From Candidatus Woesearchaeota archaeon (lineage in GTDB: Archaea > Nanobdellota > Nanobdellia > Pacearchaeales > GW2011-AR1): 61,227 bases of DNA. Numbering within the stretch: position 1 is the stretch's first letter; the number at the start of each line of letters is the position of its first letter. The position numbers and the translations under genes are program-made. The stretch lies in NCBI GenBank assembly GCA_964497435.1, contig CAZCCD010000005.1, forward strand, positions 46,214 to 107,440, in the 5' to 3' direction. The notes below the pieces were generated by a model. That model saw nothing but the letters and a program-made list of their open reading frames with translations, had not been told where the DNA came from and did not search any database. Of this stretch, positions 5,451 through 60,500 are shown one piece after another.

Positions 5451-6122
5451 ATGTCAAAACTACCAATTACAAGAACTCAAGCCTTTGAACTTATCAAAAA
5501 GTATAATAAAGACGAAAGAGACCTAATTCATTACTTAGAAAGCGAGGCTGTCATGAGAGAGTTAGCTTCTAAACTTGGTGAAGATGTTGATTACTATGGA
5601 ATGCTTGGTTTGCTTCATGACATTGATTGGGGCTTAACAAAAGACAACCCAAAAACACACATGACTAAAGCTCCTGAAATTTTAAAAAAAACTGGTTTTG
5701 ACAATGAGTTTATTGAAATAATTTTAAGTCATGCTTACGGATTTGATTGCGGAGGAGATGATTCTGATTTTCTAAATAAAAAAAGAACAAAGAAAATAGA
5801 ATTTGCTTTAGCCGCTAGTGAAACTATAACTGGTTTAATACATGCCTATGCTTTAATGCGACAAGGAAGAATTTCAGACATGGAAGTTTCTGGCTTGAAA
5901 AAGAAATTTAAAGACAAGACTTTTGCAGCTGCAGTTGATAGAGAAATTATTCGAGAATGTGAAAACCTCCAGCGGGTTTCTCACACTTCCAGCGACCAAA
6001 CCGAATCTTCTAATTGCCTCCGACAGATTCGGAATGAAAATCTTGGTTTAACTTTAGATGAATTCTTCAAAATTGCAATAGAAGGAATTAAAAAAATTAA
6101 GGAAGAAGTTGGATTAAGTTAA
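5451..6122 (+). CDS. HD-domain phosphohydrolase carrying an in-frame ~26-aa insert
   Basis: LGLLHDIDWG (HD dyad) and SHAYGFD. The insert NLQRVSHTSSDQTESSNCLRQIRNEN is encoded by a GC-rich hairpin element. Confidence 0.75.
   Translation: MSKLPITRTQAFELIKKYNKDERDLIHYLESEAVMRELASKLGEDVDYYGMLGLLHDIDWGLTKDNPKTHMTKAPEILKKTGFDNEFIEIILSHAYGFDCGGDDSDFLNKKRTKKIEFALAASETITGLIHAYALMRQGRISDMEVSGLKKKFKDKTFAAAVDREIIRECENLQRVSHTSSDQTESSNCLRQIRNENLGLTLDEFFKIAIEGIKKIKEEVGLS
5967..6031 (-). mobile_element. miniature hairpin cassette inserted antisense and in frame inside the HD gene
   Basis: GC-rich block in an AT-rich gene. 8-bp stem ccgaatct/agattcgg (6001-6032) with loop ..ttgcctccgac. Homologous to the L11 leader cassette. 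Flanked by gaatgtgaaaac / gaatgaaaatc. Confidence 0.4.
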
Positions 6123-6172: not shown

Positions 6173-7741
6173 ATGCAAATTAAAACCAATCCTTTGACAG
6201 CTGAATTATCTTTCTTAAGCCCAAATCAAAGATCTCAACTAATGTATATTGCTAAAGAAAAAGTATCTCAATATAAAGGACGAGCACCCTCTTCAATTGC
6301 AATTTGTCCAGTAAGAACTGGGCGCGGTTACAGAGGATATGACACTGCAGACCATCTAGTGGCTATATGGGAGGGTTTTCAATTGGATGAAGGCAAAGTA
6401 AGTGCTTTAGAATCCCTTATGATAGAAGTCAATGAACCAAATCAAGTTGAAACAAGAAGATATAGATCTGGGAGATTGGTTCCTGCAAGACCATACAGGT
6501 CTACTAGTTTTGGGGTGCATGAAAGTACAAGAGGATACTTAATCTCAGAAAATCCTTGGAAAAACCAGGGACTTTTCATTGTCAGAAAATTTGATTCAAG
6601 AGAAGAAGCAACAAAAGCTGTAAGAAGAGAAAGAGGCAGGTGGTTATTTAATGGAAGATCTTTTGTAGAATTAAGATTACCTCTTGAAACAACAAACTTA
6701 TCAGCCCTAGAACAAATTACTAGAGTCTCTTCAGTTCTTGGAGCAAATCTTCCAAAAGACCAGAAGAAAATGATTTATGATTTGTATAGATCATTGATGC
6801 TAGCAGATGTAGATCAAAAAACCTCTGATGAGTTAGCTGGTCTTGAAGGTATACTTGACTTCGTCAGATGGACCTTATTTGGAGGATCTGTAAACCCTAC
6901 AATTTCTGAATACTATGGATTAAGAGACCGTTCTGTAATGCTTGCTGGAGTTTATGGTGTTGGAAAGACAACTATTGCTAAGGTGCTAGCTACAGAAAAC
7001 CATAGCTCATTATTTATTCCAATAGAAGCCTTAACATTAGTTGAATCTCTTTTTGAAAAAAAGGGAGATGAAGAAAAATATACCTTGTTTGATGCTGTTA
7101 AAAGGTTACAAGGTAGGACTGGTGTTGATATTGCACTATTCTGTGATGATATAGAATCTGCAATGATAGATCCAAAGCATCATCATATGGGGCCTGAATA
7201 TTTAGCTGGTACATCCTCCTTGTTAAACAAATTACAAGGAATTGGGGGAGGAAATACTTTATTGAACGGATCAACAAATAATCCTTTTGTAATTGATCCA
7301 AGATTTTTAGAGTTTGGAAGGGTAGGATATATTATTCATGTTCCATTGCCAGATGAAATAGGTAGATTAAGAACTTTTGAGATACATACAAGACAAAGGC
7401 CAATAAAAAGAAAAATGGATTTTCAAGACCTAGCTAAAAAAACAGAAGGATTTAGTAACAGGGCTATTGAAGAGGTATGTAATAAAGCTGGCGAGTCTGC
7501 ACTGAGACGAGCTGCAAGGTCAATAAAAAAGCCTGGAGAAACAGAATTTGATGCAGCTAAAAGAGTTACTTTAGATATAGCAGAAGATTTTCCAATACGC
7601 GAAGAAGATTTTGAGAGAGGGTTGACAATTGTAAGAAGACACATAAGAACTGATCAGGTAAGGGCATTAGACAGAGATATAGGAAATTTTTGTGAAGACT
7701 ACAACAGTAGAACAATTGGCTTCAATTCTAAACCTCGTTAA
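6173..7741 (+). CDS. AAA+ ATPase (classical AAA clade, single module) with an unrecognised ~250-aa N-terminal domain
   Basis: Walker A GVYGVGKTT, Walker B-like ALFCDDIES, and a C-terminal lid typical of CDC48/PAN/FtsH-type AAA (LPDEIGRLRTFEIHT...GFSNRAIEEVCNKAGESALRRA). Arg-rich and visibly higher GC than its neighbours. Confidence 0.8.
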   Translation: MQIKTNPLTAELSFLSPNQRSQLMYIAKEKVSQYKGRAPSSIAICPVRTGRGYRGYDTADHLVAIWEGFQLDEGKVSALESLMIEVNEPNQVETRRYRSGRLVPARPYRSTSFGVHESTRGYLISENPWKNQGLFIVRKFDSREEATKAVRRERGRWLFNGRSFVELRLPLETTNLSALEQITRVSSVLGANLPKDQKKMIYDLYRSLMLADVDQKTSDELAGLEGILDFVRWTLFGGSVNPTISEYYGLRDRSVMLAGVYGVGKTTIAKVLATENHSSLFIPIEALTLVESLFEKKGDEEKYTLFDAVKRLQGRTGVDIALFCDDIESAMIDPKHHHMGPEYLAGTSSLLNKLQGIGGGNTLLNGSTNNPFVIDPRFLEFGRVGYIIHVPLPDEIGRLRTFEIHTRQRPIKRKMDFQDLAKKTEGFSNRAIEEVCNKAGESALRRAARSIKKPGETEFDAAKRVTLDIAEDFPIREEDFERGLTIVRRHIRTDQVRALDRDIGNFCEDYNSRTIGFNSKPR

Positions 7742-26296: not shown

Positions 26297-26362
26297 GTAG
26301 TAATTAAAAAATAGTAACATTTAAAAATAAAACAAACAAAGTAAAAACATGGTAAAAAACTT

Positions 26363-26416
26363 TCCTCAAAGGCAACAAAAGAAAGTTGTTTGAGGGATCA
26401 AAAACCGTAGGTTTTT
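26363..26416 (+). mobile_element. 54-nt hairpin/palindrome leader cassette inserted at the start codon of 26420
   Basis: Bracketed by an exact 17-nt duplication aacatggtaaaaaactt (26346-26362 and 26417-26433) that contains the ATG. About 80% identical over ~50 nt to the L37Ae leader. Confidence 0.5.
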
Positions 26417-26419
26417 AAC

Positions 26420-27172
26420 ATGGTAAAAAACTTAGCAAGATTGGTTGGGGCAGGATTTTTAGTTGGAAGTAGTTTTCTTCCAGCTTATGCTGATGAAAAG
26501 GAAAAAAAAGCTGATGAAAAAATATTTCAAGGAACTATTATTGAATGGGGTGGAAGGCAAAAATCAGGAAAACTTGGTAGATTATTCGAAATAGGTGGAG
26601 GTTTGTTAAGAGGACAAGGAGAAAGAGAGCATGAAAGAATTGTTGCTCGTGAAAGTGCTGATAAAACTAACCTAATTATTGTAAATGGAAAATATTATCC
26701 TGCTCCTGGTTATGATTGGGCTGATAAAAATGATCCAGATAATTATGAGGTTGTAAGAGAAATTACTAACGAAAAAAATATTCCAAGAGATGACCTTAAT
26801 CCTACAAGTATAATAAAACATTTTGCTTGCAGTAGATGGGATGATAATGGAAATAATATTCCTAGTTTAGATGAGTTTAAAGAAAGAAAACTTGTGTTTA
26901 GAAGAGGTGAACCTATAATAATTGCAGCTTCAATTGAATCAGAAAGTGCAAGAGGAAAAAAAATAACAGCAAAGATATATTCTTCAAGAGGGCAAATAGC
27001 AGATCAGGACTGGACAATAATAGGAAATCCTTTTTGTGCGACACTTGGTCATGAAAATAGTTACGACTTTTCTGCTTGGTTGTTTGATAGAGGAGGAGCT
27101 GGCGAGTATCAAGTAAGATGGTGGTATAAAGGAGATATAATAGGGCTAACAGATTTCACAATAACAGAGTAA
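26420..27172 (+). CDS. secreted hypothetical protein
   Basis: Signal peptide LVGAGFLVGSSFLPAYA. 250 aa. No recognised domain. Confidence 0.55.
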   Translation: MVKNLARLVGAGFLVGSSFLPAYADEKEKKADEKIFQGTIIEWGGRQKSGKLGRLFEIGGGLLRGQGEREHERIVARESADKTNLIIVNGKYYPAPGYDWADKNDPDNYEVVREITNEKNIPRDDLNPTSIIKHFACSRWDDNGNNIPSLDEFKERKLVFRRGEPIIIAASIESESARGKKITAKIYSSRGQIADQDWTIIGNPFCATLGHENSYDFSAWLFDRGGAGEYQVRWWYKGDIIGLTDFTITE

Positions 27173-27181
27173 AAACTTAAA

Positions 27182-28321
27182 ATGCAAAAAAAAGTGGTGA
27201 AGAAAAAAAGAGAAAGTGAACTTTCTACTAGCTCGCCTAGACGTAGTCAAGCTAAAGGGATGGTGATAAGCCAGTTAATGATTTTATTAATTGGAATTTT
27301 TGCATTTGCATACATTCTTAGTGAGATAAACTTAGTGGGTGCGGTAGGTGAAGAAGGAGAAGATGAACCTCCTGCTGAAAAACCTGCTCCTTCTACAACA
27401 TTTAATCCTGTGCCTTTTGTTTTTACTCTTAAAGGTGTTGAAAAAATTACACCTAACCAAAAAATAATCAGTGAGGCAGGAAAGGCTGTTGGAGAAAGTG
27501 CAGTAGAAGAATCTGCAAAATTCGGCTTTAAAACAATACTTAAAAATGCAGCAGTTGCATCAACAATATTCTTTGCTATACAACTTCTTGGTCCTTTAAT
27601 AACAAGCGATAGGGGAGCAATAAACATTATATCAACAGCAGCCTCAATAGGATATTTTACAGCAAGCACTTTATCTGCAAAAGCTGTGGCTGCAAAACTG
27701 CCTGGATTTTTAGGAGATAAGACAGGAGTTCTAGGTTTAACATGGGGGGCTGCGATTATAACTATAGGAGTTATTGCAGTCATTGTAATCTGGGGGTTTA
27801 AGAAAACAGCTGAAGAAACTGTTCAGTATTCTTGTTTTGTCTGGGATGCTCCTCTCGGAGGAAATGATTGTGATAAATGCAATCAAGGAAGTCTTCCTTG
27901 CACAGAATACATGTGCAAAAGTCTAGGACAAAGCTGCGAGTTAATAAATAAAGGAACAGGAGAAGAAAAATGTGTCTGGCTGAATAAAGACGATGTAAGG
28001 CCTCCTGAAATAAGGCCATGGAATGATGCTTTATTAAATAGCGACTATAAATATAAAGAAGATACAGCAATCTCTCCTCCAGACAGAGGAGTATTTATAA
28101 GATATAAAGAAGGTTGTATCCAGGCTTTTACACCTTTCAAATTTGGAATAACATTAGATGAACCTGCAAGATGCAAGATAAGTCCTGATAGAAAAAGAAC
28201 ATTCGATGAGATGTCTTTAAGTTTCGGAGGAAGCAGCACAGCAAAATACAATCACAGCATGGAAATTGTTTTGCCAAGCAAAGAGTCTTTAGAAGCTGAA
28301 AATATAACTCTTCAAAATTGA
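27182..28321 (+). CDS. membrane/Cys-knot part of a split paralog of 20430-23519 (ends at an in-frame TGA)
   Basis: AKGMVISQLMILLIGIFAF, three more TM segments, then CDKCNQGSLPCTEYMCKSLGQSC matching CNKCNEGDIPCNDYRCNALGQTC. Same frame as 28343-29362. Confidence 0.6.
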   Translation: MQKKVVKKKRESELSTSSPRRSQAKGMVISQLMILLIGIFAFAYILSEINLVGAVGEEGEDEPPAEKPAPSTTFNPVPFVFTLKGVEKITPNQKIISEAGKAVGESAVEESAKFGFKTILKNAAVASTIFFAIQLLGPLITSDRGAINIISTAASIGYFTASTLSAKAVAAKLPGFLGDKTGVLGLTWGAAIITIGVIAVIVIWGFKKTAEETVQYSCFVWDAPLGGNDCDKCNQGSLPCTEYMCKSLGQSCELINKGTGEEKCVWLNKDDVRPPEIRPWNDALLNSDYKYKEDTAISPPDRGVFIRYKEGCIQAFTPFKFGITLDEPARCKISPDRKRTFDEMSLSFGGSSTAKYNHSMEIVLPSKESLEAENITLQN

Positions 28322-28342
28322 GGATTATTTAATTTATATGTT

Positions 28343-29362
28343 ATGTGCCAGGATTCTAATGGAAATCCTAAAGGAGATTCTCCTTCAGCAAGTTTTGTCT
28401 TTAAGTATTGTGTCGATGACAGCCCTGACACACAAGCTCCAAAGATATTAGGGACAAACATTAATACAAATTCACCAATAGCATTCAATACTAGCTCAGT
28501 AAAAATAGAGCTTTACACAGACGAGCCTGCTGAATGTAGATGGAATAGAGATAGGGATGCGAGTTTTGGTTCAATGGAAGGAACAATGTCATGTAACTTA
28601 AGAGTATTTGACATGAATGCACAAAACACTTACAAATGCACAGCAACTTTAAGTGGCTTACAAGACAAGCAAGACAACAACTTTTATTTTAGATGTAAGG
28701 ACAAGCCATTAGAAAAAGATGAAAAAAAGAGATATGAAAACTCTCAAGGATATAAATTAACATTAATAGGAACACAGCCATTAGTAATAAACAAGATTGA
28801 GCCAGAAGGAATTGTCAAAGGCTCATCTGATTTAATTAAAGTTACATTGAAGGCAGAGACATCGGCGGGATATAAAGAAGGAGAGGCAATATGTTTTTAC
28901 AGCGAATCTTGTTTTGATGTATCGGGAAGCAAGACAGACTACACTTCTTTCTTTTATCCTGATAATAAATTCACCCATACACATAGCCAGGATATTTATT
29001 TAGAAGAGGGAACATATCAATGCTCTATAAAATGTGAGGATCTTGGAGGAAACGCTGATACTAAAGAAACAAGTTATACAGTTGAAATAGATGAATCAAC
29101 TCCAAAAGTCATAAGGGCATACAAAGTCGGATCCAGACTAGAAATTATAACTGATGAAGAAGCTGCCTGTGTTTACAGTCTACAAAGCTGTAGTTATTTA
29201 TTTGATGACGGGGTTAAAATAAACACCTTTGACAAGAAAGTGCATTCTCTTGAATGGGACACTACAAGGACTTATTATATAAAGTGTATGGATGAATTCA
29301 CGAACGAGCCTTTCCCTGATCAATGTTCAATAATAATAAGGGCGAGTGAAGATTTTGAATGA
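28343..29362 (+). CDS. beta-sandwich repeat part of the split paralog (continuation of 27182-28321)
   Basis: C-terminus PKVIRAYKVGSRLEIITDEEAACVY...YYIKCMDEFTN aligns with PKVVRVFKDGSRLKIITDEEARCYY...YYIKCKDQFGN of the 1029-aa protein. Confidence 0.6.
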   Translation: MCQDSNGNPKGDSPSASFVFKYCVDDSPDTQAPKILGTNINTNSPIAFNTSSVKIELYTDEPAECRWNRDRDASFGSMEGTMSCNLRVFDMNAQNTYKCTATLSGLQDKQDNNFYFRCKDKPLEKDEKKRYENSQGYKLTLIGTQPLVINKIEPEGIVKGSSDLIKVTLKAETSAGYKEGEAICFYSESCFDVSGSKTDYTSFFYPDNKFTHTHSQDIYLEEGTYQCSIKCEDLGGNADTKETSYTVEIDESTPKVIRAYKVGSRLEIITDEEAACVYSLQSCSYLFDDGVKINTFDKKVHSLEWDTTRTYYIKCMDEFTNEPFPDQCSIIIRASEDFE

Positions 29363-48453: not shown

Positions 48454-48672
48454 TTATTCCAAATAATAAACATCTGAGGCAAATTTTTTTTCGCATCTCT
48501 TACATTGCCAGATTCCTTTTGAGAGTCTTTTAATTCCTAATTTACCACAAAAAGGACATTTTTGTTTTTTTCTTTGTTTTTCTTCTATTTTAACAAGCTT
48601 GGCTCTGACTGTTTTTCCATATCTCGCTCCAAATCTGCCAGATGATTTTGATTTTTTTGATTTTGATGACAT
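48454..48672 (-). CDS. rpl37ae: ribosomal protein L37Ae (eL43)
   Basis: GRFGARYGKTVR...CPFCGK...WQCKRCEKKFA zinc ribbon. Confidence 0.85.
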   Translation of the reverse strand: MSSKSKKSKSSGRFGARYGKTVRAKLVKIEEKQRKKQKCPFCGKLGIKRLSKGIWQCKRCEKKFASDVYYLE

Positions 48673-48676
48673 CTTA

Positions 48677-48733
48677 AAACCTGCGGTTTTATATCCCTCA
48701 AGCGACTTCTTTTCGTTGCCTCCGGTAGAAGTC
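48677..48733 (-). mobile_element. 57-nt leader cassette between a degenerate duplication of the L37Ae start region
   Basis: 7-bp stem gacttct/agaagtc with loop ..gttgcctccggt, then aaaacctgcggtttt abutting the ATG. Flanks are ttgatgacatctta and ttgataaaactta. Confidence 0.4.
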
Positions 48734-48779
48734 TTGATAAAACTTAGAGATAAAAATGGTTTTTAAATTATTCTATAAA

Positions 48780-48901
48780 TGGGGCAGGGAGGATTTGAAC
48801 CCCCGTCGCCAGCTATTTAGGAAGGCTCTCGAGATGAATATATTTTGCTCGAGACTTCCTTCACCCAAAGCTGGAAGCCTACCAAACTAGCCTACTGCCC
48901 C
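48780..48901 (-). tRNA. tRNA-Pro(UGG) with a 49-nt intron at 37/38
   Basis: Acceptor GGGGCAG/CTGCCCC, anticodon stem CCAGC/GCTGG, loop TTTGGG^A, T arm GGGGG-TTCAAAT-CCTCC, discriminator A. Intron 48815-48863 contains its own hairpin. Confidence 0.75.
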
Positions 48902-48989
48902 GAATAAGAATAAATAAAGAAATCAATTTATAAAGCTATTTATGTAATTATTTCTTCTTTAGATCGGCCAAGCTTGGACGAGTTTAGTT

Positions 48990-49703
48990 TTATTTTTTCT
49001 TAGCTTTTTCTTCTTTCTTTTGGGGTTCTTTTTTTACTTCTGTGCTTCCTGGAGAAACCAGTGTTGTAGCTGGAGCTGTTTCACCTTCTTTAGGAGCTGT
49101 TGGAGTTGCTGCAGCTGTTGCAGCTTCTTTAGCTGCCTGTTCTTGTTTAATGATTTCATCTTGTTTAGCCTTTACTTCATCAAAATATTTCTTTAACTCT
49201 AATAACTTTTCCTTAGATGTTTCTGTTTTTTCTGATTCAATTTCATTGTCAAATTTACCTTCGTTAATTTGCAGTTCTATATATTTGGGAGGCTGATTCT
49301 CTATTAAAATTCCAAGACTAATACATGTTCCAACGACTGACTTAACAGCTGACTTCAAATTCTTGGAAAGCATATTTGGAAATTTTGTCTTAGATACTAA
49401 AATAATTTGTTCTATTGAAGCATTTCCGACATATTGTTTTTTTTGAGCTCCTGATCCTTTTTCAATTCCTAATTCTCTCTTTAATAACTCTGAGACTGGT
49501 GGCGAGAAAACCTTAACATCAAATTCTTTTGTTGATGGAATAATCTCGAGTTCTACAGGAACTTTCATTCCTTTGAAGTTTTTTGTTGCATCATTAACTT
49601 TTGATATTACTTGGCCAAGGTTAATTCCTGCTGGCCCAAGTTTCTGGCTAAGGGCAGGTCCTGGTTTCATTTCTCCACCCTCGACTAAAAGTTTAATTTG
49701 CAT
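48990..49703 (-). CDS. rpl11: ribosomal protein L11 with a ~80-aa low-complexity C-terminal extension
   Basis: N-terminal GGEMKPGPALSQKLGPAGINLGQV... core. Tail is rich in A/T/P/K/E (AAKEAATAAATPTAPKEGE...KKEEKAKKK). Confidence 0.85.
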   Translation of the reverse strand: MQIKLLVEGGEMKPGPALSQKLGPAGINLGQVISKVNDATKNFKGMKVPVELEIIPSTKEFDVKVFSPPVSELLKRELGIEKGSGAQKKQYVGNASIEQIILVSKTKFPNMLSKNLKSAVKSVVGTCISLGILIENQPPKYIELQINEGKFDNEIESEKTETSKEKLLELKKYFDEVKAKQDEIIKQEQAAKEAATAAATPTAPKEGETAPATTLVSPGSTEVKKEPQKKEEKAKKK

Positions 49704-49705
49704 TT

Positions 49706-49797
49706 GAAAACAACCTACGGTTTTTTTCGATTTTCCCTTTCAGCACAGATAAGCGATTTTTTAAATTGCCTCCGACGAAAATCGCACATTTAATTGT
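49706..49797 (-). mobile_element. 92-nt leader cassette inserted at the L11 start codon
   Basis: Bracketed by an exact 14-nt duplication tttaatttgcattt (49692-49705 and 49798-49811), which reads AAATGCAAATTAAA on the gene strand and includes the ATG. Contains stem gcgatttt/aaaatcgc with loop ..ttgcctccgac, and aacctacggtt. Confidence 0.5.
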
Positions 49798-49810
49798 TTT
49801 AATTTGCATT

Positions 49811-50065
49811 TTATTTTGTTGATAATTTTAATTGTAATTTACTTAGTTTATCTCTTAGTTTATTTCTTTGAATAACTAAAGGAGCAGTCTCGATATCTGC
49901 AATTTGCTGAAAAGTTTCGATTACAACATCTAAGATAGGATAGAATGGTAAATTGCTCATGATAAATCTATTATAATATCTACAAACACTATTAATTCTA
50001 TAATCAATTACCTTTATCCTAAATTGGTAATATTTTTCTAATGCTGTTTCTTTCAATCTATTCAT
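49811..50065 (-). CDS. hypothetical protein between spt5 and rpl11
   Basis: 84-aa ORF. Its SD plus ATG is a duplicated copy of the spt5 3' end. No recognised family. Confidence 0.35.
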   Translation of the reverse strand: MNRLKETALEKYYQFRIKVIDYRINSVCRYYNRFIMSNLPFYPILDVVIETFQQIADIETAPLVIQRNKLRDKLSKLQLKLSTK

Positions 50066-50122
50066 TTTCTTCCTCCAAATCGGCCAAGCCTGGACGATTT
50101 CTTATTCATTTTCTTCCTCCAA
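50059..50122. repeat. exact 20-nt direct repeat flanking a 24-nt palindromic insert
   Basis: tattcattttcttcctccaa occurs at 50059-50078 and 50103-50122. The insert atcggccaagcctggacgatttct matches 48963-48981 at 18 of 19 nt. Confidence 0.85.
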
Positions 50123-56342: not shown

Positions 56343-56702
56343 TTATAAATCAATAACCCCATCTTTAGTCAAAGCCGCGAATCTTATTCCTACTGGAAGA
56401 TTGATTAAAGCAGAAATTAAAGCCATGTGTTCTTTTCCATCACCACTTGCAATGCTTAAAGCAACCTCTATTCCAGAAATCTTTCCTTTAATCTTATCAG
56501 TAATTTCATTTCTAAGGTCTTTAATTTTTTTAGATAAATCAATTTTAATAAATTCGGTTTTATCTTTTTTATCTTCTATTAAAAATTTAGAGGCAAAATC
56601 ATCTCCAAGGAGAATTATCTTATCCCAATCTCCATGTTTAATCAATCCTGATACCTGCGCCCATGAGCCTTTTCCGCTTGATAATAATGCGATTAGATCC
56701 AT
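56343..56702 (-). CDS. hypothetical protein
   Basis: 119-aa ORF. The ATG is preceded by AAAAACCGTAGGTTTTTAAA. Confidence 0.5.
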   Translation of the reverse strand: MDLIALLSSGKGSWAQVSGLIKHGDWDKIILLGDDFASKFLIEDKKDKTEFIKIDLSKKIKDLRNEITDKIKGKISGIEVALSIASGDGKEHMALISALINLPVGIRFAALTKDGVIDL

Positions 56703-56864
56703 TTTAAAAACCTACGGTTTTTAATTTAAAATAAGTTAATAATTTATAAGGATTGTTGTGGTAAACTTTATAAACCAACTTTATCTTTAAATTTCAACCG
56801 TTTGAACCATATCGTTACAAGATACATTCTAGACTTGCAGCGCAGAAAATGGGAGGTTGTAATA

Positions 56865-59088: not shown

Positions 59089-59187
59089 GCCTCTGTAGCT
59101 CAGTTAGTTTTAGAGCAGTTGCTTCGTAAAATAATAATTTAAAAACGAAACAGCAAAAGGTCATGGGTGCAAATCCCATCAGGGGCT
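59089..59187 (+). tRNA. tRNA-Thr(CGU) with a 23-nt intron at 37/38
   Basis: Acceptor GCCTCTG/CAGGGGC, D arm GCTC..GAGC, loop TTCGTA^A, variable AGGTC, T arm ATGGG-TGCAAAT-CCCAT, discriminator T, followed by T7. Intron 59129-59151. There is a G-A mismatch at 27-43. Confidence 0.7.
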
Positions 59188-60350: not shown

Positions 60351-60500
60351 CGCCCCCGCCAGGAATCGAACCTGGAAGCCCGTAAGGGCCCAGTTTACTT
60401 GTTAACTTACTTTTCTCTCTAATTTAGGAAAGATAGCATTAGGAAAACCTAGATTTTCCACAAACTCAAGACTGGCGCAATACCATTATGCGACGGAGGC
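60351..60500 (-). tRNA. tRNA-Ser(UGA), type II, with a 69-nt intron
   Basis: Acceptor GCCTCCG/CGGGGGC, 3-bp D stem, anticodon stem CCAGT/ACTGG, loop CTTGAG^A, long variable arm GCCC-TTAC-GGGC, T arm CCAGG-TTCGATT-CCTGG. Intron 60396-60464. Confidence 0.75.

Follow-up and report, generated by a model that had tools for sequence, protein, structure and literature searches.

A 92-nt block ahead of the ribosomal protein L11 gene of a Candidatus Woesearchaeota archaeon is a real insertion with target duplication. It lies in a 61,227-nt stretch of contig CAZCCD010000005.1, hereafter the window. We favor, at a probability of about 55%, the explanation that the block arrived by recent insertion and belongs to a family of small, non-coding elements with two hairpins that is specific to Woese- and Pacearchaeota-type DPANN archaea, that is, a mobile or formerly mobile structured 5′ leader cassette. 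On the minus strand, which is the gene strand, the 14-mer AAATGCAAATTAAA occurs twice (49811-49798 and 49705-49692), with 106 nt from start to start and 92 nt between the copies. A preliminary description of this DNA had reported this exact duplication holding the L11 ATG, together with an upstream copy adjoining the preceding stop, an upstream open reading frame (uORF) of about 38 codons that crosses the block and ends out of frame past the L11 ATG, and a block end set directly against the duplicated ATG context. Each of these features was recovered: the first base of the upstream copy is the final A of the TAA stop of open reading frame (ORF) 49811-50065, the uORF (49809-49693) has 38 codons, and the block, reading ...AAACCGTAGGTTGTTTTC at its 3′ end, stops at 49706 where the repeat begins at 49705 (Table 1).

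In relatives, ATGCAAATTAAACTTTTA is the conserved 5′ coding sequence of L11, so the upstream 14-mer duplicates L11 codons 1-4 plus two junction bases. The element separates the two halves of what was a TAA-A-ATG stop/start junction, and its landing point was 12 nt inside the L11 frame; 14 nt of target were duplicated, and an intact L11 start was therefore regenerated at the 3′ end of the element. Metagenomes supplied 69 related L11 loci. At 44 of these, the ORF ahead of L11 (usually Spt5) either overlaps the ATG or stops no more than 5 nt short of it, and in locus L057 Spt5 overlaps L11; the site is thus empty at these 44 loci, which answers the proposal of the preliminary description to survey related genomes for empty sites. 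The 84-aa ORF upstream of the insert gave no Pfam match. In L081, coding sequence resembling its C-terminal part is found ahead of L11, so this ORF is probably a genuine small gene lying outside the insertion.

The 14-nt repeat at L11 is not a product of chance. Each tested repeat was compared with 200 random 45-mers drawn from the window; a flank match of at least 14 nt was found in 1/200 for the L11 repeat, and none was as long (0/200) as the 17-nt repeat flanking a second copy at 26346-26433. Low-complexity coincidence in an AT-rich genome (31.6% GC), or ordinary conservation of an L11 leader, could draw on the base composition and on the fact that ATGCAAATTAAA also starts another gene at 6173, but it conflicts with these controls and with the lack of a leader at most L11 orthologues. 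It conflicts equally with the motif AACCGYAGGTT, which has four exact matches in the window, and five matches at ≤1 mismatch against 0.57 expected at that threshold, and with covariance-model matches that reach E values down to 1e-20 in many genomes. We give this explanation practically no credence.

Architecture and distribution of the two-hairpin family

Three window sites, before L11, before L37ae and at 26346-26433, share one layout: first P1, a hairpin whose stem varies and whose loop (..TCGGAGGCAA..AAA) is conserved, next a purine linker and a hairpin P3 made up of an A-run, CC, a GYA loop, GG and a T-run, then 1-8 nt and an ATG. The 8-bp stem GCGATTTT/AAAATCGC noted earlier in the L11 block is its P1; the pairing is exact, but the loop (CGTCGGAGGCAATTTAA) measures 17 nt and not 16. 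The family comes in two length forms, short (as at 48673-48746 and 26363-26416) and long (as the L11 block), plus variants, one with the full GGAGGTTTT in the 3′ hairpin arm and others with a G+C-rich 3′ hairpin. The three sites had been described as independent insertions at start codons. They are indeed copies of one family in both length forms, but the L37ae copy (48673-48746), which directly follows an intron-containing tRNA, has no significant flanking repeat. The copy at 26346-26433 precedes an orphan 250-aa ORF for whose product no homologues were found. Its upstream duplicated ATG lies 21 nt past a TATA-like box and is the old leaderless start position; the copy is without the usual 5′ flank, and the 5′ arm of its P1 is partly drawn from the repeat.

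Over its 61 kb, the window holds three full copies, one degenerate copy and one solo hairpin, the last being the fourth exact AACCGYAGGTT match (56704-56724). The degenerate copy lies antisense inside another ORF and is counted in favor of insertion; the last ~55 codons of that ORF (5451-6122) may be derived from it. Further solo P3-type hairpins without P1 were seen at L105:6674-6743 and in L049 upstream of 5853, at the same distance from a start codon or tRNA gene and just past a promoter-like box. A solo hairpin or a P3 3′ arm also stands ahead of some full elements (L004, L012, L022, L030 and L049).

Table 1 Coordinates of the L11 insertion, its parts and neighbors, the other family copies of the window, and the copies of a separate 24-nt hairpin element
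Feature	Position	Strand	Remarks
Upstream 14-nt copy, AAATGCAAATTAAA	49798-49811	minus	Old stop/start junction; supplies uORF ATG (49809-49807); matches conserved L11 5′ end of relatives
Inserted long-form element, 92 nt	49706-49797	minus	100.9 bits, E 3e-19 with model R2; missing at most orthologous L11 loci
Hairpin P1 of L11 copy	49753-49785	minus	Arms GCGATTTT (49785-49778) and AAAATCGC (49760-49753); 17-nt loop with GGAGGCAA (49773-49766)
Purine linker of L11 copy, AAAGGGAAAA	49731-49740	minus	GAGGGAT in short form; seen in long- and short-form alignments
Hairpin P3 of L11 copy	49706-49728	minus	GAAAAAAACC / GTA loop / GGTTGTTTTC; one A.G mismatch; AGGTT in 3′ arm, 8 nt before L11 ATG
Downstream 14-nt copy	49692-49705	minus	Holds true L11 start, ATG 49703-49701
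uORF, 38 codons	49693-49809	minus	Spans whole element; stop 10 nt beyond A of L11 ATG, out of frame
Ribosomal protein L11 gene	48990-49703	minus	PF03946 and PF00298 matched on homologues
84-aa ORF upstream of insert	49811-50065	minus	Last A of its TAA stop is first base of upstream 14-mer
Short form before L37ae	48673-48746	minus	P1 48733-48727/48710-48704, GAGGGAT, P3 48691-48675; 91.9 bits
Short form with exact 17-nt repeat AACATGGTAAAAAACTT	26346-26433	plus	Repeats 26346-26362 and 26417-26433; P1 26358-26364/26381-26387, P3 26400-26416; 86.9 bits
Solo P3-type hairpin, TTAAAAACC-GTA-GGTTTTTAA	56704-56724	minus	1 nt before ATG of ORF 56343-56702, ~20 nt past TATA-like box; 27.4 bits
Degenerate long form	5957-6044	minus	Intact P1 and loop, altered P3 (7-nt loop); antisense in 3′ end of HD-domain ORF 5451-6122 (plus); 38.2 bits
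24-nt hairpin copy	50079-50102		Directly after Spt5 stop; exact 20-nt repeat TTGGAGGAAGAAAATGAATA at 50103-50122 and 50059-50078
24-nt hairpin copy	48964-48981		Directly after L11 stop
24-nt hairpin copy	L092:~550		At L11 start; 19-nt duplication AAGAAGATGCAAATTAAAT
24-nt hairpin copy	L120:~742		

A three-block DNA pattern search of a genome collection returned 71 loci, about 35 of them in metagenome-assembled genomes (MAGs) of Woesearchaeota, Pacearchaeota and Nanoarchaeota, with up to six matches per MAG and five or six in several. Two covariance models of the family, R1 and R2, picked up further, more diverged copies, giving a census of ~58 copies across many MAGs. Both hairpins are kept by compensatory changes. 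In the short form, 99.6% of alignment cells pair, a share that falls to 39-63% on sliding the partner, and six pairs have changed on both sides; the long form has 97.1% of cells paired and eight such doubly changed pairs. The observed values were not attained in any of 500 shuffles. Across 15 long-form copies, six of the seven P1 pairs show changes on both sides, and P3 of the long form has 100% of cells paired with two covarying pairs. Conservation of the purine linker is partly forced by the search pattern; the motif is also present in copies recovered by the covariance model alone.

The positions of the copies are narrowly defined. About 40 of the ~58 end 0-8 nt upstream of an ORF-opening ATG and nine end 1-7 nt upstream of tRNA genes, and copies are co-oriented with the downstream gene. 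The tRNA-linked copies adjoin tRNA-Leu, Pro, Ala and Val, an intron-containing tRNA (L041, identified by Rfam) and further tRNAs read from sequence. L11 carries the element in four lineages, L37ae in six and Spt5 in five (Pfam-checked), and further genes behind copies encode S3Ae, S10, L10e, an L18e-type protein, SRP54, SMC, a clamp-loader AAA ATPase and a DRG-type GTPase. Downstream gene identities were checked with Pfam (S3Ae in L047, SMC in L026), the S3Ae of L055 and the SMC of L049 being named by N-terminal similarity only. The downstream set is rich in translation and information-processing machinery (ribosomal proteins, Spt5, SRP54, tRNAs) and is not confined there: other products are orphan, membrane, secreted or CBS-domain proteins. 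The same motif thus stands ahead of more than 15 different genes plus tRNAs and is not specific to one operon.

No Rfam family matched the elements. Rfam 15 at gathering score, run on the window and 14 loci, returned only tRNAs and 5S rRNA, as did a search of 48600-49900 at E up to 10, in which nothing overlapped the elements; known ribozyme families gave no Rfam match to the element. Full-text literature searches gave no account of an element of this kind from DPANN archaea, and a paper on archaeal ribosomal leaders lists no DPANN motif (PMC7247131).

Two candidate relationships of AACCGYAGGTT were set aside. The motif resembles an E. coli-type helix 45; mimicry of 16S helix 45, or an extended anti-Shine-Dalgarno, was dropped on the single related 16S 3′ end on hand, which reads GTATCTGTAGGGGAACCTGCAGATGGATTACCTCCT. 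A multi-copy intergenic repeat of Clostridia, in Oscillospiraceae/Ruminococcaceae MAGs (L001-L003, L005, L008, L009 and L014 among others), and two viral-labelled IMG/VR contigs (L152 and L153) carry AACC-GYA-GGTT hairpins, and in L152 the hairpin adjoins an ATG. Homology is not supported here: AAGGGAAA-N7-hairpin is all that is common, P1 is missing, and R2 gives 13-32 bits. A C-GNA-G triloop is a generally stable hairpin apex.

Repeated gain, probable selection on structure and the case for a resident leader

Before L11, the family was found only in the window (canonical long form), in L048 and L079 (a diverged long form ending ...CTCGCAATG) and in L119 (a short form with a possible decayed 17-nt repeat). 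Because the forms differ between these three settings, at least three separate gains at L11 are indicated. The preliminary description had held that the same leader without duplications in relatives would speak for ordinary leader conservation. L048, L079 and L119 do carry an element without an exact repeat, but as different copies, and the closest L11 relatives are without any element. L37ae, Spt5 and S3Ae likewise have different forms in different lineages, which points to repeated gain at the same kind of site. Significant flanking repeats were found in 3 of the 33 copies tested, with lengths of 12 (L012), 14 and 17 nt against 0-3/200 controls. A preference for A-rich ATG targets, proposed earlier, is separable neither from the 32% GC composition nor from survivorship, in which only start-regenerating insertions persist in a compact genome.

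Copies at orthologous positions appear to be maintained. Within the element core their identity is 78-97%, compared with 33-63% for the downstream gene at third codon positions, and P1 differs between orthologues by compensatory changes (L048/L057 and L011/L019, a tRNA-linked pair included). This pattern argues for selection on RNA structure at individual loci, with overwriting by other family members as the alternative, and most copies are accordingly old, not newly inserted, and probably functional. The strongly conserved loops (GGAGGCAA and GAGGGAU) further suggest factor binding by the RNA and its co-option by the host.

Such conservation is what a non-mobile cis-regulatory leader RNA of the host would show. 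In that explanation an attenuator or a protein or ligand switch would govern a regulon of translation and information genes plus tRNAs, with P1 and the linker as sensor and P3, with its AGGUU and U-run, as expression platform, and flanking repeats would be rare by-products of copy birth. It gains from the enrichment of ribosomal proteins, Spt5, SRP54 and tRNAs downstream, from the conserved loops and from the predicted place of the element in the 5′ part of primary transcripts. It also gains from the sequence GGTTTTN, a copy of the P3 3′ arm with its variable seventh base matching, which lies 4-11 nt upstream of P1 in 7/23 short forms (0.47 expected) and could pair with the P3 5′ arm as an exclusive helix. 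GGTTTTN is either such an alternative-helix partner or an insertion scar; it is lacking in the long form and in the other short forms. Examples are L048, L057, L043, L089 and L047, and the L089 repeat continues into tRNA-Pro, taking in its first bases.

On the other hand, the exact duplication of 12-17 nt of coding sequence at the target and the empty sites mark de novo insertion, and a resident regulator does not account for different forms at the same gene in different lineages or for orphan, secreted and membrane proteins among the downstream products. In the long form there is no support for an alternative helix; the terminator scan does not class P3 as a terminator, and no Rfam family matches. 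We therefore consider a non-mobile regulatory leader unlikely, if still to be taken seriously. In the L11 copy, a separate alternative pairing, CGATTTTC/GAAAATCG, was rejected, as it shows no covariation in copies with a different P1.

A further possibility is a self-propagating RNA module used by the host, which would wire genes into a lineage-wide control or maturation system common to ribosomal-protein mRNAs and tRNAs, for example hairpin-directed 5′ processing, which would convert transcripts with leaders to leaderless mRNAs and yield mature tRNA 5′ ends, or a global leader-binding regulator, with new genes joining by 5′-end insertion. We regard this as improbable.

For the mobile or formerly mobile cassette that we favor, the following course can be proposed. 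A putative trans-acting enzyme would make staggered cuts 12-20 nt apart, and in a compact, mostly leaderless genome only gene-5′-end insertions that regenerate the start would survive. The element would then be transcribed as a 5′ leader folding into P1 and P3, and AGGUU of the P3 3′ arm could act as a weak Shine-Dalgarno (SD) sequence for the gene now leadered. At L11, ribosomes starting from the duplicated ATG would traverse the element and terminate 10 nt beyond the true L11 start, so that translational coupling would be kept.

Several results weigh against this explanation. Thirty of the 33 tested copies have no significant flanking repeat. Terminal inverted repeats are not convincing: the sole near-terminal match in the L11 copy is an A/T-rich 7-mer overlapping the duplication (75% over 20 nt), and it is not kept in the other repeat-flanked copy. 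A Pfam scan of 20 large window ORFs found no transposase, reverse transcriptase or Cas1-like gene. The single-sequence fold is no better than shuffles (z = -0.88), so that support for the structure is purely comparative, and the orthologous conservation with compensatory changes is no less compatible with a regulatory RNA of the host than with a selfish element. No insertion polymorphism was seen, as the genome has no close relative (its best L11 identity among relatives is 72-75%) and the other contigs of the same organism, which also carry the 26346-26433 copy, are 99.98-100% identical and represent the same strain. Finally, L11 has no TATA-like box at the right distance (the spacing is 15 nt) and its copy occupies what was a stop/start junction within an operon, so transcription starts are not a general target; and an SD role fails for those copies that are tRNA-linked or whose 3′ hairpin variants end in UUUCCUCGC directly before the AUG.

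Transcription, translation and processing around the element

Of 63 window genes, 19 have a TATA-like 8-mer whose end lies 20-23 nt ahead of the ATG and 4 have an SD sequence (GGAGGTT); on these counts the genome is predicted to be mostly leaderless. A recurrent promoter-like consensus, CCACAACAAT-C-TTTAAAAA (or TTATAAA), ends 20-23 nt before starts, for example at 56741-56762 (minus), upstream of 52341 (minus) and in L007, L016 and L067. In short forms, the TATA-like box ends 24-31 nt ahead of P1, which suggests that the element forms the 5′ end of the primary transcript. Read from sequence, neither form contains a TATA-like box 20-23 nt before the ATG that could serve as an internal promoter.

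Through P3, AGGTT comes to lie 5-8 nt upstream of the ATG, as the GGAGGTT sites of this genome do. This agrees with the earlier proposal of a transplantable translation-initiation leader, but nine copies adjoin tRNA genes, and the element is therefore not purely a translation-initiation device. In 14/18 long copies, the element frame ..GCG AUU .. GGG AAA .. AAC CGY AGG UUG.. is free of stops, and the other two frames usually contain one or two. The uORF of L012 (minus strand), the other long copy with a flanking repeat, reads the same element frame as the L11 uORF. P3 was also considered as an intrinsic terminator: it has only two G-C pairs, its T-run lies inside the stem, and a terminator scan flagged no site at the L11 and L37ae copies.

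The fixed distance from the 3′ hairpin to the gene raises the possibility of a processing cassette, in which an endonuclease would recognize the 3′ hairpin and cut at its base, leaving an mRNA that starts at or near the AUG for leaderless translation, or a near-mature tRNA 5′ end. Analogues would be tRNA punctuation in mitochondria and the tRNA-like element before 5S rRNA in Haloferax. The geometry is the same in both classes of target, with the hairpin 0-8 nt from the ATG or 1-7 nt from tRNA +1; variants whose GC-rich hairpin abuts the AUG leave no room for an SD sequence; and a mostly leaderless genome would suit such a role, as would the solo hairpin 56704-56724, which stops 1 nt short of an ATG. 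Yet neither cleavage nor a candidate nuclease is in evidence, the element does not resemble a tRNA and matches no known ribozyme family, and the adjacency is equally explained by a target duplication that begins at the old 5′ end. On balance, a processing cassette seems to us rather unlikely.

The copies might instead be a multi-copy small RNA gene of ~65-95 nt, running from the upstream promoter to the P3 U-run and acting in trans through its purine-rich loops, placed beside strong promoters. The TATA-like box before P1 and the T4-T5 end of P3 would be in keeping with this, given that archaeal RNA polymerase terminates at oligo-T, and tRNA-linked copies would be freed by RNase P. Against it, downstream essential genes have no promoter of their own between element and ATG, so read-through must be the rule, and the L11 copy lies inside an operon. 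A search of the window for TTGCCTCY and ATCCCTC as trans targets of the loops found no complementary target, only the elements themselves or background. A free-standing small RNA is thus quite improbable.

Relation to known elements and a second hairpin in the same genomes

The element can be placed among small, structured, multi-copy units that become part of transcripts, and it is unusual in its strict gene-5′-end position, its long and variable duplications, its lack of terminal inverted repeats and its DPANN host. Small intergenic repeats of the miniature inverted-repeat transposable element type are represented by the Neisseria Correia elements, ERIC, RUP and BOX. Like them, the archaeal family is short, non-coding, multi-copy and structured, lies beside gene starts, is predicted to be co-transcribed, shows some target duplications and varies in presence between lineages. 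It differs in having no terminal inverted repeats, in duplications of 12, 14 and 17 nt as opposed to a fixed 2-9 bp, in the placing of its conserved parts in internal hairpin loops, in its strict orientation and distance to a start codon or tRNA 5′ end, in its archaeal host and in the lack of a known parent element.

Target-primed reverse transcription of the short and long interspersed nuclear element (SINE/LINE) type generates variable 7-20-nt target duplications at A/T-rich targets. The variable duplication length, the A/T-rich targets and the RNA-like structured unit with a U/A-rich tail are similar here, and the 26346-26433 copy looks 5′-truncated with junction microhomology; the element differs in having no poly(A) tail, and no reverse transcriptase occurs among the scanned window ORFs. 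We know of no such system in archaea, and retroposition is offered as a lead. Casposons and Cas1-type integration produce 14-15-bp target duplications of similar length, whereas casposons span 8-20 kb and contain genes as well as terminal inverted repeats; the present element has neither such size, genes nor repeats, and Cas1 was not found among the scanned ORFs.

Rickettsia palindromic elements are inserted in frame within coding sequence and translated into protein. Both cases show small palindromic insertions tolerated at or in genes of a reduced genome, and one frame of the long form is mostly open, as described above, whereas the archaeal copies precede the start codon and have an out-of-frame uORF. 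Ribosomal-protein leaders, such as the L1-binding leader of the bacterial L11 operon and the archaeal S15, eL15 and L4 leaders (PMC7247131), share with the element a structured 5′ position, a hairpin by the ribosome-binding region and covariation. They differ from it in that the element places one motif before many unrelated genes and tRNAs, with no rRNA mimicry shown and no Rfam match.

To our knowledge, very few cis-acting RNA elements are known in archaea, and we came across none reported from the DPANN group. The two covariance models and ~58 copies establish a well-supported new structured RNA family that marks the 5′ ends of ribosomal-protein, transcription-factor and tRNA genes, and the L11 site provides direct sequence evidence of insertion with unusually long target duplications. 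The family offers a handle on gene expression in mostly leaderless organisms and on leaderless-to-leadered conversion, as well as on an insertion mechanism by which a 24-nt hairpin element of these genomes is mobilized too.

This second tiny element, unrelated to the two-hairpin family, is the near-palindromic hairpin AGAAATCGTCCAGGCTTGGCCGAT (also given as TCGTCCAGGCTTGGCCGA; Table 1). At the Spt5 stop, the second copy of its 20-nt repeat TTGGAGGAAGAAAATGAATA supplies the ATG of the 84-aa ORF. Since the 24-nt element behaves alike, these genomes have a process that inserts small hairpins at gene junctions with 12-20-nt duplications.

Some minor observations concern the window itself. An exact look-up of the L11 protein returned no record. 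The organism occurs in sequencing runs SRR12113384, SRR12113420 and SRR12113430. By the Rfam tRNA model, three tRNA genes carry long insertions (introns), at 48780-48901 (minus), 59089-59187 (plus) and 60351-60500 (minus); ARAGORN called none in the window. At 27182-29362, two window ORFs (27182-28321 and 28343-29362) correspond to one 726-aa gene called in L154:2941-5121, on contigs that other sequencing runs gave for the same organism; the sequences are 99.98% identical with one mismatch, and this single substitution probably makes or removes the stop between the two ORFs.

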